A stretch of DNA of 64,000 nucleotides from the NCBI GenBank assembly GCA_023061495.1, contig GCA_023061495.1_3643.1; one strand, 5' to 3'. The notes below the pieces were generated by a model, which worked only from the letters and a program-made list of their open reading frames with translations, did not search any database and had not been told where the DNA came from. The DNA comes from Escherichia coli (GTDB lineage: Bacteria; Pseudomonadota; Gammaproteobacteria; Enterobacterales; Enterobacteriaceae). The position numbers and the translations under genes were made by a program. Position 1 is the first letter of the stretch, and every line of letters starts with the position of its first letter. Positions 9,537 to 37,672 of the stretch are shown one piece after another.

Positions 9537-10028
9537 TTAGTCAACCTGAACCCAACCTCCTGCTACCTTTTTAAACATTCTTTGGTTATCGCTGCCTCGG
9601 AATGGTTTCTTGGTTGGTAAATCTTTTACATACTTTCCATCAATGACGATATCAGCCAGTTTAAGAACATCACTAGAGATATGCTCAAATGTGAACCCAG
9701 TATACACAAGAATAGTTTTCTTGTCACCAAACTTTTCCTTAATTCTCCTCATAAGGTCAATAATACCTGGCTCATTATAAGTAGCCAAAGGCTCTCCACC
9801 TAGTAAAGAAATACCGCATACAGAGTCATTGTCTAAATCCGACAAAATTTTCTGCAAATCTTCTTCGGTGAACTCTCTTCCTTTATCTTTTGACCAAAAT
9901 GCTTGATTAAAGCAACCAGGACAAGCATGTGGGCACCCAGATACCCACAAAGCTATCCTAATACCTGGTCCCTCGGTGTAAGATATCTCTGTATACCCGG
10001 CAATATTCATACATACTCCGCGTCGCAT
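9537..10028 (-). CDS. nrdG: anaerobic ribonucleotide reductase activating protein (radical SAM)
   Basis: CxxxCxxC cluster CPHACPGC near N-terminus; small size; adjacent to nrdD. Confidence 0.8.
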   Translation of the reverse strand: MRRGVCMNIAGYTEISYTEGPGIRIALWVSGCPHACPGCFNQAFWSKDKGREFTEEDLQKILSDLDNDSVCGISLLGGEPLATYNEPGIIDLMRRIKEKFGDKKTILVYTGFTFEHISSDVLKLADIVIDGKYVKDLPTKKPFRGSDNQRMFKKVAGGWVQVD

Positions 10029-10186
10029 TTAGGACAATGCCAAATAAAATCGTCCAGTGCCTTACACCAACGAAGATTGCAATGACAACCACACTTGCAA
10101 ATTTTATAAATACCTGATGACATACTGCACCTCCTAGCTCACTGTGTGTCAATAATATGCCACATCCTTGTGGCTTTTGTCAAGAA

Positions 10187-11446
10187 TCAGCAACCACAAC
10201 TTCCGTAGTGCTTAACTCGCTCGATAACTTCCGCTTGCTTACCTTTATTGTAAGGACGGGAGTTAGGGCTGGAAAGGTATCCAGACACACGTCGAATTAC
10301 ACTGATCGTTCCCTCTTCATGGTTTCCACACCCTGGGCATACAAAGCCTTTAGCTGTTGCACTGAACTCACCAGAGAAACCGCACTTGAGACATTTATCT
10401 ACAGGTTGGTTAATACCAAAATACATAATGTGTTTATATCCGAAATCAACAAGAGCTTCCAAAGCATCTAAGTTGTTTTTCAGATTTGGTGTCTCTATGT
10501 ACCCAATGTTGCCACCAGAGGAGATCATAGCAAAACCTTCCTCATACTTCCACTTATCAAAAGGCGAGCTATTGATCCATACTGGCTGATGGAAACTGTT
10601 GGTGAGGTATTCATGCTCGTGCTTCAACACTTCTGGGTATTCACGATCCAGACAGGTTGCAGCTTTATAGCATAAACTCTCAGAAGGTGTGCCGTACAAG
10701 CTAAATGCTAGTCCACTTTCCTTCTTGTATCGCTCACAAGCATCTTTCATGTGCTGAAGGATTCCAAGAGCTAAAGCCTTGTCACCCTCTCTGCCCAAAA
10801 TCTGACAGGTTTCATACACACCAATATACCCAATACTGATGGAAGCGTACCCGTCATAGAAGAGTTTATCGATACTCTCTTCAGGATCCAGGCGAGCAAG
10901 AGCTCCTTCACACCACATGATAGGGTTCTGCCCTGCCTTTGTTCCTTTTAGACGGTTAACCCTTACAAGGTGAGCCTCGTATGCAAGATCCAAGTATTCG
11001 TCAAGAACTGCAAAGAAATCAATACCTTCCGTCTTAGCTTTTGCCGCAATCATTGGTAGGTTAAGGCTAACAACACCCAAGTTGAATCTGCCAAGGTATT
11101 TTTCATCACCCTCCGGTGTAACATATTTGCCAAGGAACGACCTACATCCCATGCTTGTTACTTTGCCGTCTGTTGAACCTGTCACTTTACGATTTAGCGG
11201 AACAGAAACAAAGTCAGGATAAATCCGCTCTGCAGAGCATTCTAGGGCTAATCGTTTCAAATCGTAGTTAGGATCCCCAGGGTTCATGTTGACACCCTCC
11301 TCTAAGAAGAACAGCACTTTAGGGAACACAGGTGTGATCCGTTCTTCACCAAGACCCATTTTGTGAACTTTCAAGTAGTTTTTGGTAATCATTCTACCAA
11401 AGACCGAAGTATCCAGCCCTAAACTTAATGTGATGAATGGAGTCTG
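10187..11446 (-). CDS. nrdD: anaerobic ribonucleoside-triphosphate reductase, exon 2
   Basis: glycyl-radical motif RRVSGYL near C-terminus and Zn ribbon CLKCGF...CPGCG; 5' boundary inferred from intron splice logic (ORF track extends to a GTG at 11470). Confidence 0.75.
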   Translation of the reverse strand, partial: QTPFITLSLGLDTSVFGRMITKNYLKVHKMGLGEERITPVFPKVLFFLEEGVNMNPGDPNYDLKRLALECSAERIYPDFVSVPLNRKVTGSTDGKVTSMGCRSFLGKYVTPEGDEKYLGRFNLGVVSLNLPMIAAKAKTEGIDFFAVLDEYLDLAYEAHLVRVNRLKGTKAGQNPIMWCEGALARLDPEESIDKLFYDGYASISIGYIGVYETCQILGREGDKALALGILQHMKDACERYKKESGLAFSLYGTPSESLCYKAATCLDREYPEVLKHEHEYLTNSFHQPVWINSSPFDKWKYEEGFAMISSGGNIGYIETPNLKNNLDALEALVDFGYKHIMYFGINQPVDKCLKCGFSGEFSATAKGFVCPGCGNHEEGTISVIRRVSGYLSSPNSRPYNKGKQAEVIERVKHYGSCGC

Positions 11447-12244
11447 CTGTCTCCACCCCTGTGTTTCCACAGGGCCAGACTATCTCTTACTCTACTTCAA
11501 TAAGATAATAACCCTTTATTGTGAGATGCTTACCTTCGGCATTTCCTTCGATAGCCCTGTGGACGTTTCCTACGTTCAAATTTAAGGCTTTTGCACAGGC
11601 ATAGAGTGAAGGATATTCACCCACCAAGGTTTTCCCTTGGTATGCCTGCACTTTCCTGTAGCACTTGCCTGGACAAAGCCCTGTTCGGAAAGCATGTCTC
11701 TTATTATCTTCCGGCAAAACCCACTCTAGGTTAGACGGATGATCATTCAATGTATTGCCATCTTTATGATTCACTTCCCAGTTTTCAGGGTCTTCTGGGA
11801 CATCTGGCAAACAATACAAGGCAACAACCCTTGAAGTTTGGATTCGAATCTTTTTACCTTTGTGGTTGAAAGAATACATATAGCGGCGTTTAACATGCTT
11901 GTTACCTTTTCCATAACCTCCCCACAATATGGGGTGCAGCATTCCACGTTTTCCGTATACGTTTCCCACCTCATCAATCACATAGTTTGATTCTTCACCA
12001 TTAAGAATGATCTTTTTCATAGAGTCTCTCCCTTTCGAAGTTAGTATTTCAACTAACCCCTACACTACTCGGTTCAGAAATGTTTGTCAAGCATCTCTGC
12101 CTTTCGTTAGTCGTTACAACCGTTCCAACTCCTGTAAGAACTAGTCACGGGATTGGCATAGCTTTCGCCTTAGCGTTCCCCGTTAGCCGGATTCACCGAC
12201 CCCTCTTATGAGGTTAGGAGAGTTTTACAACGGCCAGTTTGTTA
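11447..12244 (-). mobile_element. group I intron interrupting nrdD, carrying an HNH homing endonuclease ORF
   Basis: nrdD frame stops at TAA 12244..12242 immediately after exon end CAACGGT; intron-internal GCCGTTG (12234..12228) can pair with exon CAACGGU to form P1 with a U-G pair at the splice site; about 220 nt non-coding 5' of the HNH ORF; 3' boundary approximate. Confidence 0.6.
11487..12020 (-). CDS. HNH homing endonuclease (intron-encoded)
   Basis: HNH motif WEVNHKDGNTLNDHPSNLEWVLPEDNKRH; sits between the two nrdD halves. Confidence 0.8.
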   Translation of the reverse strand: MKKIILNGEESNYVIDEVGNVYGKRGMLHPILWGGYGKGNKHVKRRYMYSFNHKGKKIRIQTSRVVALYCLPDVPEDPENWEVNHKDGNTLNDHPSNLEWVLPEDNKRHAFRTGLCPGKCYRKVQAYQGKTLVGEYPSLYACAKALNLNVGNVHRAIEGNAEGKHLTIKGYYLIEVE

Positions 12245-13105
12245 ACCGTTGACAGAAGTTAACGTATTGATTTGGTAGAGCAAAGTTTGCATACTATCAA
12301 ACACGTCTTTATCTGTCATTTGCATTGCAACAGTCTCAGCATCTGGCAACCAATGTTCCTGACAAAATTTAAGGTTCTTCTCATAGGTTGCTTCAGCATA
12401 CTGTGCCAGATAATGATCAATATGGCTCATGGTCTGACCACCATATTGAGCACTAGCTACTGCACTAGAGATTTGGCTAAGGATTGTTGTTGCAACCCCT
12501 ATTGACTTCGGCTTACTGACATGGGCGTTACCAATGTTGAATCCGTTTTCCAGCATATCAGGATAATTTACCAAACAACAGTTTGTTAACGGACTGATCA
12601 GGTAGTCAAGATCATGCACATGGATGAAGCCTTTGTTGTGCTCTTCGGAGACACGGTCTGGCAGGATCTGTGTTGATGCAAGATGTTTGCTAAGGATGCC
12701 TGCAAGCAGGTCACGATGAGTATGAACATGATTAGTAGGCTTATTTGCGTTTTCTTTTGTAAATTCATCACAAGTGCGATCCAAGAAGCCGCTAATATCT
12801 GCAAGCAGTTTTCCACCTGCCTCTCTGTTATTATCTCTTGTCTGTCTATACTGGATGTATTCTCTGGCTGCACATTTTAAACCCATATCCATAAGAGCAT
12901 CTTCAACAAGGATATGGATATTTTTTACAGAGATCGTGCACTGGTCGGTTGGCAGATTGTTGGCAACAACTTCATTAACCGCGCAGGCAATCCGGTAAGC
13001 TTCTTCTTCAGTATGTCCAGACTCAAGTAAGGCGGACTCTGCCGCCTTGATCACCTTAATTCCGTTATAAAACTCTTCTCTACCGTCCCGTTTTACAACT
13101 TTCAC
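12245..13105 (-). CDS. nrdD: anaerobic ribonucleoside-triphosphate reductase, exon 1
   Basis: N-terminal cone-like region and NrdD-like motif FIHVHDLD; ends at the intron 5' splice site. Confidence 0.8.
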
Positions 13106-13380
13106 TTTTTCTCTCCAAAACCATTCTTAACAAAAGAGATAAAATCGTCAGCACCACCTATGTGGATACTGTCAAGGTTGCTTTCCAAGAAGATCTGAGG
13201 CAACGTTCTGGGAACAAATGGGCTACACTTCTCGATAAGCTCTTCTTTTGTGTATCCTTCACCTAGCGTCTTGTATACGAAAGGTATGCCTTTGCTGACT
13301 GCAAATTCTTTTGCTCTTACACAATGTGGGCAGTTATCCTTACCGTAAATGATGATGAAAAAAGATTTTTCGCAGCTCAT
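13102..13380 (-). CDS. glutaredoxin/thioredoxin-like protein (NrdC/NrdH-like)
   Basis: redox motif CPHC in YGKDNCPHCVRAKEF; sits between nrdB and nrdD. Confidence 0.7.
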   Translation of the reverse strand: MSCEKSFFIIIYGKDNCPHCVRAKEFAVSKGIPFVYKTLGEGYTKEELIEKCSPFVPRTLPQIFLESNLDSIHIGGADDFISFVKNGFGEKK

Positions 13381-13383
13381 ATA

Positions 13384-14472
13384 TTAAAACTCCCAAATTT
13401 CTTCTTCAGCGTCGTTAACAGTTGTGTTGACGCGGTAGTCAGTGTTCGACATTTCTTGGTTCGCCGTCTGTTGCAATGAAGGTTTCATCCACACCTGCAT
13501 AAACGGTAGCGGGTCCTTTGTTGGCGGCACAAAGTCTTTGTCGATGTCGTAATAATCATAAATCGGTGAGCAGTTATAGTCAACCCATTCTTTAAGCAAC
13601 GGTGAATTAAGACCTATAATCGCTCTTCCTTCGCTGAAAATATAGTCACTCCAACCGTACTCCTTGGTCCGCACTTCGTCAAGAATTTCTTTTAACTCAC
13701 CCTTAATCTCAAGAAAGCTTTGCTCCCATGCAGGATCATCAAGCAGGATATCGATGATAGCAAAATCACCTTTCGAATGCAGCATTTCATCAAGCATAAT
13801 TTTTTGAACAAGTTGTGCCACTTGAACAAAAATACCTTGCTCAGCTACTGCGAACGTACATGCAAAACTTGCAATAAACTCAATACTTTCTAGGGCTAAA
13901 AGTGCAAAAAGTGCTCTAAGGATACATTTCCGTACAACATCTTCTTCAACACTGGAAGGATCCAGTCGGTATTTTGCACCAATAACCTCAAGCTCTTGCA
14001 TATATTTGACAATAACTCCAGATCTGCTCAGCACGTTCTGGTTTTCCTGAATCTCTTCTATAATCTCGCGAGCATTAGGAAGGCATTGTCTAACAATCTC
14101 TGAGTAAGTTAGTGCATGAAGAACCTCAATCTCAGACTGCTTCATCAACAAGGTGAAAAGTTCACTGTTGGTGATAAATGGTGAAAACAGACAAATGATA
14201 GACCTTGCTGCAACACTGTCTGCCTCCCATTGCCACATCAGTGTCTGCACCATCACATCGTAAGTTGACTTTGAGCATGTTACGAAATCAGAAATAGACT
14301 GTGACAAATCTACTTCGTCCTCTGCCCAATCTTGTTCTTTTTGTTTTTTGTATAGTTCAAACAGCTGTGGGTACTTTTTGTTAATAGAGTCGTACATCCC
14401 CATCTGCTGTCCTAAAAACAGCGGATAATCACCAGTTTTATGAGCAGTGTTCTCAGTATTAAATACAGCCAT
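13384..14472 (-). CDS. nrdB: ribonucleotide reductase class I beta subunit
   Basis: size and position directly downstream of nrdA; conserved acidic C-terminal tail (EEEIWEF). Confidence 0.8.
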   Translation of the reverse strand: MAVFNTENTAHKTGDYPLFLGQQMGMYDSINKKYPQLFELYKKQKEQDWAEDEVDLSQSISDFVTCSKSTYDVMVQTLMWQWEADSVAARSIICLFSPFITNSELFTLLMKQSEIEVLHALTYSEIVRQCLPNAREIIEEIQENQNVLSRSGVIVKYMQELEVIGAKYRLDPSSVEEDVVRKCILRALFALLALESIEFIASFACTFAVAEQGIFVQVAQLVQKIMLDEMLHSKGDFAIIDILLDDPAWEQSFLEIKGELKEILDEVRTKEYGWSDYIFSEGRAIIGLNSPLLKEWVDYNCSPIYDYYDIDKDFVPPTKDPLPFMQVWMKPSLQQTANQEMSNTDYRVNTTVNDAEEEIWEF

Positions 14473-36858: not shown

Positions 36859-36933
36859 GCCCTGTTAGCTTAGTGGATAAAGCAGCGGCCTTCTAAGCCG
36901 TTGACACTGGTTCGAGTCCAGTACGGGGTGCCA
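36859..36933 (+). tRNA. tRNA-Arg (anticodon TCT)
   Basis: hand-folded cloverleaf: acceptor GCCCTGT/ACGGGGT, anticodon loop CTTCTAA, T-arm ACTGG-TTCGAGT-CCAGT, encoded CCA. Confidence 0.75.
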
Positions 36934-36937
36934 AATT

Positions 36938-37024
36938 GGGGAGTTATCCCGTAGAGGTAGCGGTGTAGACTGTAAATCTATTGTCATTGCGACTCGGGTG
37001 GTTCGACTCCACCACTCCCCACCA
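36938..37024 (+). tRNA. tRNA-Tyr (anticodon GTA), long variable arm
   Basis: acceptor GGGGAGT/ACTCCCC perfect, anticodon loop CTGTAAA, long variable arm, T-loop TTCGACT, encoded CCA. Confidence 0.75.
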
Positions 37025-37138
37025 AATTTATAGTTTTAAATGCATAAATCATACAGATAATGGCATTTATATTTATCGTCGTTTATACTAGTCACTAACT
37101 GCTCGAAAATCAGTGTCATTATCAGTGTTGTTTATAAA

Positions 37139-37229
37139 TGAGGGTAGGGAGCAATGGTGCTCAAGCGGTCTTGAAAACCGTCCCGTTGAGGATGACTCGA
37201 TGATGGTTCGATTCCATTACCCTCAGCCA
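37139..37229 (+). tRNA. tRNA-Ser (anticodon TGA), long variable arm
   Basis: acceptor TGAGGGT/ACCCTCA perfect, anticodon loop CTTGAAA, about 20-nt variable arm, T-arm GATGG-TTCGATT-CCATT, encoded CCA. Confidence 0.7.
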
Positions 37230-37327
37230 TATTGTTGACCTTGTAATTAAGCGAAAGCCGGAAGCAGAACCGGATTATCAAATGTTACAGTCGTCATCGC
37301 CGACTAGCAACATGGTCAACATGCTGA

Positions 37328-37424
37328 GCTGGGTAAGCCCTTTGGCAAGGGCGAGGATTTTTAATCCTGAAAATAGACGAGGTAGTCGTTGAATACATAG
37401 GTGGTTCGATTCCATCACCTAGCA
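37328..37424 (+). tRNA. atypical tRNA-like gene; anticodon loop reads UUUUUAA (UUU, Lys-like) but about 30 nt lie between anticodon arm and T-arm
   Basis: acceptor GCTGGGT/ACCTAGC (one G-U), D-arm GCCC/GGGC, canonical T-arm GGTGG-TTCGATT-CCATC; fold not fully resolved by hand; no encoded CCA. Confidence 0.4.
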
Positions 37425-37432
37425 CCTTTTTT

Positions 37433-37508
37433 GCTGATGTAGCACAATTGGTAGTGCAATTGATTTGTAATCAATAGGTTGCAGGTTCAAGTCCTGCCAT
37501 CAGCACCA
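37433..37508 (+). tRNA. tRNA-Thr (anticodon TGT)
   Basis: acceptor GCTGATG/CATCAGC perfect, anticodon stem ATTGA/TCAAT with loop TTTGTAA, T-loop TTCAAGT, encoded CCA. Confidence 0.75.
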
Positions 37509-37509
37509 T

Positions 37510-37584
37510 GGCCCTGTAGCTGGAAGGTTCAAGCAAGCGACTCATAATCGCCAGATGGTGGTTCAATTCCACCCAGGGCCACCA
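37510..37584 (+). tRNA. tRNA-Met (anticodon CAT; could be initiator, elongator or Ile2-type)
   Basis: acceptor GGCCCTG/CAGGGCC perfect, anticodon loop CTCATAA, T-loop TTCAATT, encoded CCA. Confidence 0.7.
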
Positions 37585-37595
37585 AATAATAAATA

Positions 37596-37672
37596 CTCCG
37601 CGTAGCTCAGCTTGGTAGAGCGCCTGATTTGGGATCAGGAGGTCGAGTGTTCGAATCACTCCGTGGAGACCA
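37596..37672 (+). tRNA. tRNA-Pro (anticodon TGG)
   Basis: acceptor CTCCGCG/CGTGGAG, D-arm AGCTCAGCTTGGTAGAGC, anticodon stem CCTGA/TCAGG with loop TTTGGGA, T-loop TTCGAAT, encoded CCA. Confidence 0.8.

Follow-up and report, generated by a model that had tools for sequence, protein, structure and literature searches.

The nrdD gene of an rV5-like coliphage, coding for the anaerobic ribonucleotide reductase, is split on the minus strand by an insert of 798 nt. We consider it very probable that the nrdD of a Vequintavirus has here acquired a mobile intron of group I, which is of the SPO1 type, belongs to subgroup IA and has two additional hairpins following P3. The phage is an FV3/rV5-like coliphage of this genus, and the window means here the whole 64-kb stretch of DNA that was analysed. 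After the predicted splicing, nrdD is almost certainly expressed as a single protein of 706 aa.

It should be noted that the intron is already known in the sense that close relatives have a spliced CDS in their GenBank records. It is an ordinary mobile element, and it leaves current understanding unchanged. The result matters mainly for annotation, and GenBank records of FV3/rV5-like phages mostly give two NrdD fragments plus an HNH gene. In addition, it is a further documented case of phage ribonucleotide reductase genes attracting homing introns, and it adds a second, independent nrdD site near the T4 site.

The interrupted nrdD gene and its predicted splice junction

Exon 1 (12245..13105, minus strand, 287 codons) encodes the ATP-cone and the N-terminal part of NrdD and ends in AAC GGT. 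Its start codon is a GTG that overlaps the stop codon of the glutaredoxin gene upstream. Pfam placed the ATP-cone at residues 1-91, followed by positions 1-154 of the NRDD profile. Exon 2 (10187..11446, minus strand, 419 codons plus stop) begins with CAG ACT CCA (QTP) and matched NRDD positions 155-562 as well as Gly_radical (79.8 bits); nrdG lies downstream of it at 10028..9537. A preliminary description had the NrdD frame stopping at 12244..12242 directly after CAACGGT and resuming about 800 nt later in an ORF with the glycyl-radical motif RRVSGYL, and we found both ORFs in just this arrangement on the minus strand. The in-frame stop TAA follows exon 1 directly and makes up the first three bases of the insert. 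The NRDD profile continues from 154 to 155 across the insert, and the two exons thus encode one contiguous NRDD domain.

The junction TSVNG|QTPFITL had first been placed by frame logic, and it agrees with the intron-less allele of the related phage ECP2303. This allele, which has the wobble variants GGG/CAA, reads ...GTCAACGGG|CAAACTCCATTC, and it aligns to the window up to 12246 and from 11447 on, with nothing between. Comparison with ECP2303 alone leaves an ambiguity of 1 nt (GGT|..G|CAG or GG|T..A|GCAG). Only the former gives an exon-end U paired with G and an intron-final G, and the intron was therefore assigned to 12244..11447 (798 nt). The last intron base is G11447, and joining GGU to CAG restores the frame as in the intron-less allele. 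The ligated junction is predicted to be ...GUCAACGGU|CAGACUCCA... (AAC GGU|CAG ACU), and the junction-spanning peptide should be ...LTSVNGQTPFITL... (VNGQTPF).

The joined protein was also compared with uninterrupted NrdD, and it is collinear with both ECP2303 and T4 NrdD, with no gap at the junction. The predicted spliced NrdD is 44-46% identical to T4 NrdD; the sequence of the T4 NrdD structure places the junction at G190|Q191, and exon 2 is collinear from Q191 on. Meanwhile, exon 1 differs from that of three relatives at 16-35 nt and at no amino acid, and exon 2 differs from its relatives at 37-41 nt and at 4-7 amino acids. Judged from these sequences, both exons are open and under strong purifying selection in the intron-containing lineages. 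A scan for promoters and terminators gave nothing exceeding the shuffled expectation, and motif and Rfam scans found a second intron nowhere in the 64-kb window.

Structure and covariation of the intron RNA

The intron (11447..12244, minus strand) begins with UAA, the in-frame stop of exon 1, and ends with G; it is absent from the ECP2303 allele. All elements given below lie on the minus strand. The 5' strand of P1 is the exon end CAACGGU (12245..12251), in which U12245 is the 5' splice-site U, and its 3' strand is the internal guide sequence GCCGUUG (12228..12234), in which G12234 pairs with U12245. This P1 had been proposed from the letters alone, and 12251..12245 and 12234..12228 are indeed exact complements with a terminal U·G pair. 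In the ORF-less intron of phage HeinrichReichert, the exon reads AAACGGT and the guide GCCGTTT. The P1 pairing is more than chance, because this is a compensated change from C-G to A-U. The trinucleotide CUG at 12235..12237 faces the exon-2 CAG (11446..11444) as a possible P10 partner, which is weak with 3 bp only, and HeinrichReichert has 2 bp at most.

The 5' strand of P3 (CUCUCCU, 12216..12222) pairs with 12032..12026, and HeinrichReichert has CUCUGC/GCAGGG here, a compensated change relative to the window intron. Two extra hairpins, which would be called P3.1 and P3.2 by position, lie between P3 and J3/4 (12186..12213): the first is CCUC-AUAA-GAGG (12213..12202), and the second is GUCGG-UGAAU-CCGGC (12200..12186), which covaries in homologs. 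Both are found in the SPO1 intron and are missing from the T4 introns. J3/4 (UAA), P4 (CGGGG/CCCG), the P5 region, P6 (GAC/GUU with a distal hairpin) and J6/7 occupy 12113..12185 according to alignments with Rfam and with R1, a family-specific covariance model described below. The 5' strand of P7 (GACUA, 12108..12112) is the complement of UAGUC at 11482..11478, the P7 3' strand. Two hairpins, P7.1 (12107..12064) and P7.2 (12060..12037), fill 12037..12107 between the 5' strand of P7 and the 3' strand of P3. Such peripheral hairpins are typical of subgroup IA. The region is framed by GUAG...GAAA, as it is in relatives, in T4 td and in SPO1.

The 3' strand of P3 (GGGAGAG, 12026..12032) is also the Shine-Dalgarno sequence of the HNH ORF, and its GGAG ends 7 nt before the AUG. 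P8 is formed by 12025..12019 (5' strand) and 11495..11489 (3' strand), and the HNH ORF fills its loop. J8/7 (AAGAGA, 11488..11483) and the 3' strand of P7 (UAGUC, 11482..11478) are part of the stretch that matched Rfam best, and together (AAGAGAUAGUC) they agree with the Rfam consensus. P9 (CCCUGUG-GAAA-CACAGGG, 11474..11457) is followed by a 10-nt tail with the terminal G at 11447. The group I layout is thus complete, from P1 with its U·G pair through P3 to P9, with P7.1 and P7.2, to the terminal G.

Minimum free energy (MFE) folding, which is independent of our own covariance model, yields P1, P3, both extra hairpins, P4-P5, P7.1, P7.2, P8 and P9. The z-score was -5.4 for the ORF-deleted window intron, and a value of -4.6 was also obtained. 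Among 18 homologs, all six P3 pairs form with the own partner in 13, as against 6.5% of the cross-sequence controls. In the same homologs, own partners exceed those from other sequences in P6 (100% vs 51% paired), P8 (100% vs 47%) and the extra hairpin (99% vs 64%), and P6 remains fully paired through six strand combinations. In 20 unrelated IMG/VR homologs, 88.6% of the cells are paired vs 72.6% in shuffles (0 of 500 reach 88.6%), the covariation score is 0.421 vs 0.121 in shuffles, and pairing drops to 28-51% when partners are shifted by 1-3 columns. The second extra hairpin is 92.5% paired in these 20, with four of its six pairs changed on both sides. In the alignment of these 20 (A2), the first shows 57.9% pairing, a low value due mostly to its short loop being misaligned, and its support is weaker than that of the second. 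In summary of the helices, P3, P5, P6, P8 and the second extra hairpin covary across unrelated viral homologs, and the group I intron claimed at the outset does have a core supported by covariation. P4 and P7 are invariant in the set of 18, which by covariation speaks neither for nor against them; the homologs were selected on P4.

Several choices define these counts. The whole-intron MAFFT alignment A1, in which variable hairpin arms were badly aligned, was left out of the pair counts. P3 and P8 in the homologs were located by a search constrained with the GAA(A/G) motif. Anchored searches for P8 and P3 picked wrong helices because the length of J8/7 varies, and a longest-helix search without constraints was too noisy and was left unused.

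Comparison with group I covariance models, proposed in the preliminary description, was positive for one model and below threshold for the other. R1 was built from 20 unrelated metagenomic (IMG/VR) relatives with the lineage of the window left out. It found the 5' domain of the window intron (12235..12108) with 67.1 bits (E 1.5e-14), and it gave 55.7 bits for the SPO1 DNA polymerase intron and 13 bits for T4 nrdD. However, Rfam RF00028 gave the window 26.7 bits (E 5e-4 in a 3.5-kb regional scan, E 0.0096 in the whole window), below its gathering score of 50 bits, and an intact ORF-less relative reached 29.8 bits, also below 50. In the same kind of scan, T4 nrdD scored 105.3 bits, T4 td 40.3 and T4 nrdB 35.7. 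The sub-threshold score therefore weighs less, since T4 td and nrdB, two proven introns, fall short of the threshold as well.

Two Rfam placements were rejected. The window match extends over 11744..11457, but its 5' half lies inside the HNH ORF and is spurious, and the J8/7-P7-P9 part alone is real. In the ORF-less relative, Rfam placed P3 as CGCUGGC with CAGGG; this cannot form in the window, where the strand forms a covarying local hairpin.

The predicted endonuclease, natural alleles and known introns

The HNH ORF (11487..12020, minus strand, 177 aa) had been described as occupying most of the insert, and more precisely it lies in the P8 loop. It starts with an AUG inside the P8 5' strand and stops with a UAA that straddles the border between the P8 3' strand and J8/7. 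Pfam HNH_3 matched residues 78-107 with 29.4 bits (cut-off 24.8). In addition, the ORF aligned over its full length with I-HmuI (PDB 1U3E; residues 8-160 vs 8-159, E 5e-4), and in the HNH region NHKDGN...NLEW of the ORF stands against DHKDGN...NLRW of I-HmuI, with the same domain order. We thus predict that the ORF is an HNH homing endonuclease of the I-HmuI type. It occurs at at least 95% identity in 28 phage records; all but one of the other matches are below 60%, and those among the matches listed are at about 30-45%.

The intron was found in 43 of 122 related records, without the ORF in 14 and with it in 29. Three natural alleles are therefore represented: no intron (ECP2303), an ORF-less intron (HeinrichReichert) and an ORF-containing intron (the window). 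The ORF-less intron of HeinrichReichert is 257 nt long, and its insertion site is identical to that of the window intron. Furthermore, synonymous differences cluster beside the site, and 12 of them fall within the final 50 nt of exon 1 in the ORF-less allele. This clustering and the presence/absence polymorphism are indirect signs of mobility. The three alleles are carried by coliphages that are easy to grow, among them members of the public BASEL collection, and would offer a convenient E. coli system for homing by nicking endonucleases of the I-HmuI type.

In the BASEL phages Bas54 MaxBurger (MZ501093) and Bas58 HeinrichReichert (MZ501073), the GenBank nrdD is a joined CDS, and the authors set the intron boundaries through comparative genomics (PMC8594841). 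The MaxBurger locus is 94.7% identical to the window and has a two-piece joined nrdD CDS with a nested 'putative homing endonuclease'. However, nrdD is begun at M72 in the BASEL annotations, and the ATP-cone included here is left out. In the papers that were searched, the nrdD intron of the BASEL phages is given neither an RNA structure nor a subgroup, and no experiment on its splicing is described. Our literature search found no paper on the nrdD intron seen here; the rV5 paper has terminase introns only.

The closest known system is the DNA polymerase intron of SPO1 (also SP82/phi-e) with I-HmuI. It has the same order of P1, P3 5' strand, two hairpins, GCUAA, P4-P6, GUAnnGACUA (P7), P7.1, P7.2, GAA(G/A)n, P3 3' strand, P8 with the ORF, GA(G/U)AUAGUC and P9. 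In both introns the ORF lies in the P8 loop with its stop codon overlapping the end of the P8 3' strand, and R1 matches both over its full length. I-HmuI (174 aa) and the ORF of the window (177 aa) align end to end, but they are distant (E 5e-4). The SPO1 intron differs in its host gene (DNA polymerase instead of nrdD), in the phage family and in the bacterial phylum. Moreover, its ribosome binding site lies in the loop, whereas that of the window intron is the 3' strand of P3 itself. Self-splicing and nicking have reportedly been demonstrated for SPO1, and the layout of the SPO1 type has been characterised to date in Bacillus phages.

The T4 nrdD (sunY) intron with I-TevII shares the host gene and even the segment ...Y-E/Q-x-N-T-L-x-S-x-N-G-Q-T-P-F..., and like the window intron it belongs to subgroup IA, with P7.1/P7.2, the P4 motif ACGGG(G)AA...AAUCC and an in-frame UAA at its start. 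However, it splits the codon of Y180, and the site of the window intron corresponds to the boundary of G190 and Q191. The window intron thus represents an insertion separate from that of T4, because its site is 32 nt downstream. In the T4 intron, moreover, the two hairpins that follow P3 are missing, the ORF lies 3' of the core and leaves it uninterrupted, and the endonuclease is GIY-YIG instead of HNH. Within the same subfamily, Pectobacterium phage CB7 (Vequintavirinae, Certrevirus) has HNH introns in terL, DNA polymerase, nrdA and nrdB that splice by RT-PCR, and no nrdD interruption was reported in it; the likeness is drawn from the published description (PMC7344957).

Proposed splicing and homing, and alternative explanations

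For splicing, we propose that P1 forms in the folded pre-mRNA between CAACGGU at the exon end and the guide GCCGUUG. A free guanosine bound in P7 would attack after U12245, and the freed exon 1 would then attack after the terminal G11447. In this way ...AAC GGU would be joined to CAG ACU..., giving an uninterrupted NrdD of 706 aa with TSVNG-QTPFITL. Ribosomes on unspliced RNA would be halted by the UAA with which the intron opens. For mobility, by analogy with I-HmuI, the enzyme may cut or nick the intron-less nrdD of co-infecting phages near the insertion site, and repair would copy the intron and flanking exon sequence into the intron-less allele. In addition, an RNA that is being translated into the endonuclease should be unable to fold its ribozyme core, and vice versa, because P3 uses the Shine-Dalgarno sequence as its 3' strand and P8 contains the AUG.

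A broader reading is that an intron/endonuclease pair of the SPO1 type crossed to enterobacterial phages, with this stretch of nrdD being a convergent hotspot and P3/P8 forming an unusually tight switch for the endonuclease. We regard this combination as tentative and rather doubtful.

It is very unlikely that the group I intron has decayed and lost splicing, which would make nrdD a pseudogene. In the laboratory, aerobic growth does not require nrdD; the sub-threshold Rfam score and the weak P10 are in line with it, and the T4 nrdB intron endonuclease is annotated as defective, so decay of such elements is common. However, no core pairing is broken, the core covaries with relatives, and the R1 score of the 5' domain is above that of the proven SPO1 intron. 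Moreover, the exons are open, with no amino-acid change in exon 1 beside its nucleotide changes, and the HNH ORF is intact with an HNH region that aligns with I-HmuI. A further alternative is that nrdD was split by a free-standing HNH gene, and that each half is translated on its own, the two polypeptides then associating into a working enzyme with no splicing of the RNA. Such a case is reported for Aeromonas phage Aeh1, whose nrdA is split by mobE and whose halves assemble without splicing, a precedent cited in PMC3653736. FV3 and most GenBank relatives list two separate NrdD fragments plus an HNH gene, and a 427-aa ORF that takes in exon 2 can start at an in-frame GTG (11470). But this GTG is part of the P9 hairpin and is not preceded by a good Shine-Dalgarno sequence, and the NRDD profile match does not extend to the first 7-8 codons (METQGWRQ), which belong to the intron. 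Furthermore, the HNH ORF is flanked by about 260 nt of ribozyme sequence that is conserved and covaries, and the 257-nt ORF-less version at the same site is not accounted for by insertion of an endonuclease gene and would leave exon 2 startless. We hold separate translation of the two halves to be extremely unlikely.

Virtually no weight can be given to an intervening element of another kind, be it intein, group II intron or translational bypass element. Phage ribonucleotide reductase genes are known to harbour inteins among other elements (PMC3653736). Nevertheless, an intein is excluded here because the stop codon formed by the first three bases puts the insert out of frame with exon 1. The Rfam scans of the region gave no match to a group II intron or to any family besides group I. 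As for bypass, the known element is 50 nt long, and the 798-nt insert is far longer. A group I intron of the SPO1 type is the reading that we keep for the insert. As a separate observation, the same layout is common in viral metagenomes, with 77 of 123 motif hits; it scores under 30 bits with Rfam, and many introns of this layout may be unannotated.

Structure of the nrdD locus and its predicted splice junction

The window comes from an rV5-like coliphage (Vequintavirus), and its closest match is phage FV3 (97.8% across the locus and 98.3% across 6 kb). The genes nrdB, glutaredoxin, nrdD, and nrdG are located on the minus strand (14472..9537), as are all nrdD features described here. Exon 1 of nrdD (13105..12245, 287 codons) encodes the ATP-cone and positions 1-154 of the Pfam NRDD profile, and the next ORF of the NrdD frame continues this profile from 155 to 562 and contains Gly_radical and RRVSGYL. 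The 798-nt insert (12244..11447) opens with TAA in frame with exon 1 and carries an ORF of 177 codons (12020..11487) with a Pfam HNH_3 match above cut-off. A preliminary description had read this arrangement as nrdD split by a group I intron with an HNH homing endonuclease, and all of its coordinates were correct. In addition, nrdD starts at a GTG overlapping the glutaredoxin stop (GTGA), and Pfam places the ATP-cone at residues 1-91 (window 12892..13105). The GenBank annotations of the BASEL phage collection begin nrdD at the M72 equivalent, and the ATP-cone is thereby lost.

The related phage ECP2303 has an uninterrupted nrdD, and the window sequences ..12246 and 11447.. align to its adjacent bases. 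Across the junction it reads GTCAACGGG|CAAACTCCATTC, that is TSVNG|QTPFITL, which bears out the predicted protein junction. Sequence comparison by itself leaves two boundary placements, 1 nt apart. Group I chemistry requires an upstream exon ending in U and an intron ending in G. The placement 12244..11447 alone gives both, and the last exon base, U, then pairs with a G in P1. Thus, we assigned the intron to these positions. The ECP2303 allele differs from the window at the wobble position on either side of the insertion site (GGT to GGG and CAG to CAA). The spliced NrdD would have 706 aa. Its alignment to T4 NrdD shows no gap, with exon 1 ending at the counterpart of G190 and exon 2 opening at that of Q191.

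RNA anatomy and covariation

The insert has a group I core, as the preliminary description had proposed. P1 (12251-45/12234-28) is followed by P3 (7 bp, 12222-16/12032-26), two extra hairpins (12213-02 and 12200-186), J3/4 (UAA), P4 (12182-78/12152-48), P5 (within 12177-53), P6 (12146-44/12120-18), P7 (12112-08/11482-78), P7.1 (12107-064), P7.2 (12060-037), P8 enclosing the ORF (12025-19/11495-89), J8/7 (11488-83), P9 (11474-57), and the terminal G (11447). Minimum free energy (MFE) folding, which took no input from this model, recovered P1, P3, both extra hairpins, P4-P5, P7.1, P7.2, P8, and P9 in the ORF-deleted window intron and in a natural ORF-less intron (z-scores -5.4 and -4.6, respectively; none of 200 shuffles folded as well).

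The general group I model of Rfam, RF00028 (gathering score 50 bits), gave 26.7 bits for the window (E 5e-4 regional, 0.0096 whole window) and 29.8 bits, also under the gathering score, for the intact ORF-less relative (257 nt). The T4 nrdD intron, whose core is uninterrupted, scored 105.3 bits. The T4 td and nrdB introns, which are proven to self-splice, reached 40.3 and 35.7 bits and are also under the gathering score; thus, phage introns that are atypical or interrupted by an ORF normally score low with Rfam. A second covariance model, R1, was made for the intron 5′ domain (138 positions, 21 pairs) from 20 unrelated metagenomic relatives. R1 matched the window over its full length (12235..12108, 67.1 bits, E 1.5e-14), and it gave 55.7 bits for the SPO1 DNA polymerase intron and 54.4 bits for the Bacillus phage S4-2 intron, versus 20 bits for T4 td and 13 bits for T4 nrdD.

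Compensated changes were found between the two Vequintavirus variants in P1 (CAACGGU/GCCGUUG vs AAACGGU/GCCGUUU), in P3 (CUCUCC/GGAGAG vs CUCUGC/GCAGGG), and in the second extra hairpin (GUCGG/CCGGC vs GUCAGC/GCUGGC). For 18 ORF-less homologs, we matched every 5′ strand either to the 3′ strand of the same sequence or to that of another one. All six P3 pairs formed with the own partner in 13 of the 18 and with other partners in 6.5% of comparisons. The corresponding pairing was 100% and 51% for P6, 100% and 47% for P8, and 99% and 64% for the second extra hairpin. We also aligned the 5′ domains of the 20 metagenomic relatives, none of the window lineage, with MAFFT, and from this separate alignment RNAalifold predicted P4, P5, and P6 together with the second hairpin. 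In this alignment, 88.6% of cells were paired versus 72.6% in shuffles (0/500 reached 88.6%), the covariation score was 0.421 versus 0.121, and pairing dropped to 28-51% when the partners were slid by 1-3 columns. Because neither P4 nor P7 varies, these helices count neither for nor against covariation.

Relatives, natural variants, and possible mobility

The SPO1 intron has the same element order as the window intron, including the pair of hairpins that separates P3 from J3/4. Both introns hold their endonuclease ORF in the loop of P8, and the 3′ strand of P8 overlaps at its end with the ORF stop codon. These hairpins are missing from the introns of T4 td, nrdB, and nrdD. The SPO1 endonuclease I-HmuI (PDB 1U3E) aligns with the window ORF over its full length (residues 8-160 vs 8-159, E 5e-4), with the HNH motif region conserved; relatives of the ORF outside Vequintavirus are ~30-45% identical among the matches listed. 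The T4 nrdD intron carries the GIY-YIG enzyme I-TevII and interrupts the Y180 codon, 32 nt upstream of the window site, which indicates that this conserved segment received the two introns independently. In the partial genome of Bacillus phage S4-2, a gene is interrupted by an intron that shares the SPO1-type layout and is not annotated (L005 1440..2151); its HNH ORF follows P6 rather than lying in P8. Furthermore, scanning IMG/VR for the P4 motif ACGGGGAA...AATCCCGTG yielded more than 120 loci; GCTA precedes the motif in 77/123 hits, as in the window, and by this count the SPO1-type layout is frequent in viral metagenomes (loci L006-L125; see also L002). Given the poor RF00028 detection, many such introns are probably unannotated.

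The insert is present in 43 of the 122 related phage records matching the locus. The HNH-ORF form accounts for 29, and an ORF-less form of 257 nt occupies exactly the same site in 14, for instance in HeinrichReichert (Bas58; L002 1807..1551). The ORF-less-intron allele shows 12 synonymous differences within the last 50 nt of exon 1 (L002 1858..1808 vs window 12294..12245) against ~4% elsewhere, a cluster that resembles a tract co-converted from a divergent donor. We infer that the intron may be mobile through its HNH enzyme, because of the I-HmuI homology, the presence/absence polymorphism among relatives, and these clustered differences. The phages phita32, C2, JEP1, nomine, and 241Ecol014PP have a further nrdD insert ~85 codons downstream, absent from the window; that of phita32 (L003 1251..2002) combines a T4-like P4-P6 (ACGGGGAAACTCCAGAACGGACAATCCCGTG) with an ORF of 510 nt and matches the Rfam group I model at 35 bits.

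From its anatomy, the intron would splice by the standard two-step guanosine-initiated pathway. The ORF Shine-Dalgarno (GGGAGAG) is the P3 3′ strand and its AUG lies inside the P8 5′ strand, so ribosome loading and core folding should compete. This competition would be reminiscent of the translational control reportedly acting on I-TevI in T4 td.

Alternative readings and previous annotation

A free-standing endonuclease gene might have split nrdD into two separately translated halves, but the ribozyme is conserved, an ORF-less variant exists, and exon 2 lacks a proper start, all of which contradict this reading. Decay to a dead intron in an nrdD pseudogene is also contradicted, since the core is intact and covarying and both exons are under purifying selection: exon 1 has 16-35 nt differences and no amino-acid difference from three relatives, and exon 2 has 37-41 nt and 4-7 amino-acid differences from relatives. 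This selection supports expression of both exons as functional protein. An intein is excluded, as the first intron codon is a stop.

The finding of an nrdD intron is correct, well supported, and already known. The record of group I introns in phage nrdD goes back to T4 sunY, and no other ribonucleotide reductase gene is found split as often in phages (PMC3653736). In phage CB7 (Vequintavirinae), genes other than nrdD carry HNH-containing introns that were shown to splice (PMC7344957). GenBank gives nrdD as a joined CDS, with the same intron as the window, in Bas54 (MaxBurger, with the ORF) and Bas58 (without it), and the BASEL paper set intron boundaries by comparative genomics (PMC8594841). 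The rV5 paper mentions only terminase introns, and our literature search found no paper with RNA structure or splicing data for the window nrdD intron. The remaining value is that the two-fragment nrdD annotation in most records can be corrected, and the intron could serve as an experimental system.

In addition, ~20 GenBank records (MG0656xx) titled 'Campylobacter phage' (e.g. C2, A147, A135) share 93-99% identity at the nrdD locus with the rV5-like phages of E. coli, which suggests mislabelled hosts or coliphage contamination. Elsewhere in the window (36859..37669, plus strand) at least six tRNA genes are clustered, and Rfam scores two longer candidates there higher as tRNA-Sec-like, yet under that family's threshold.
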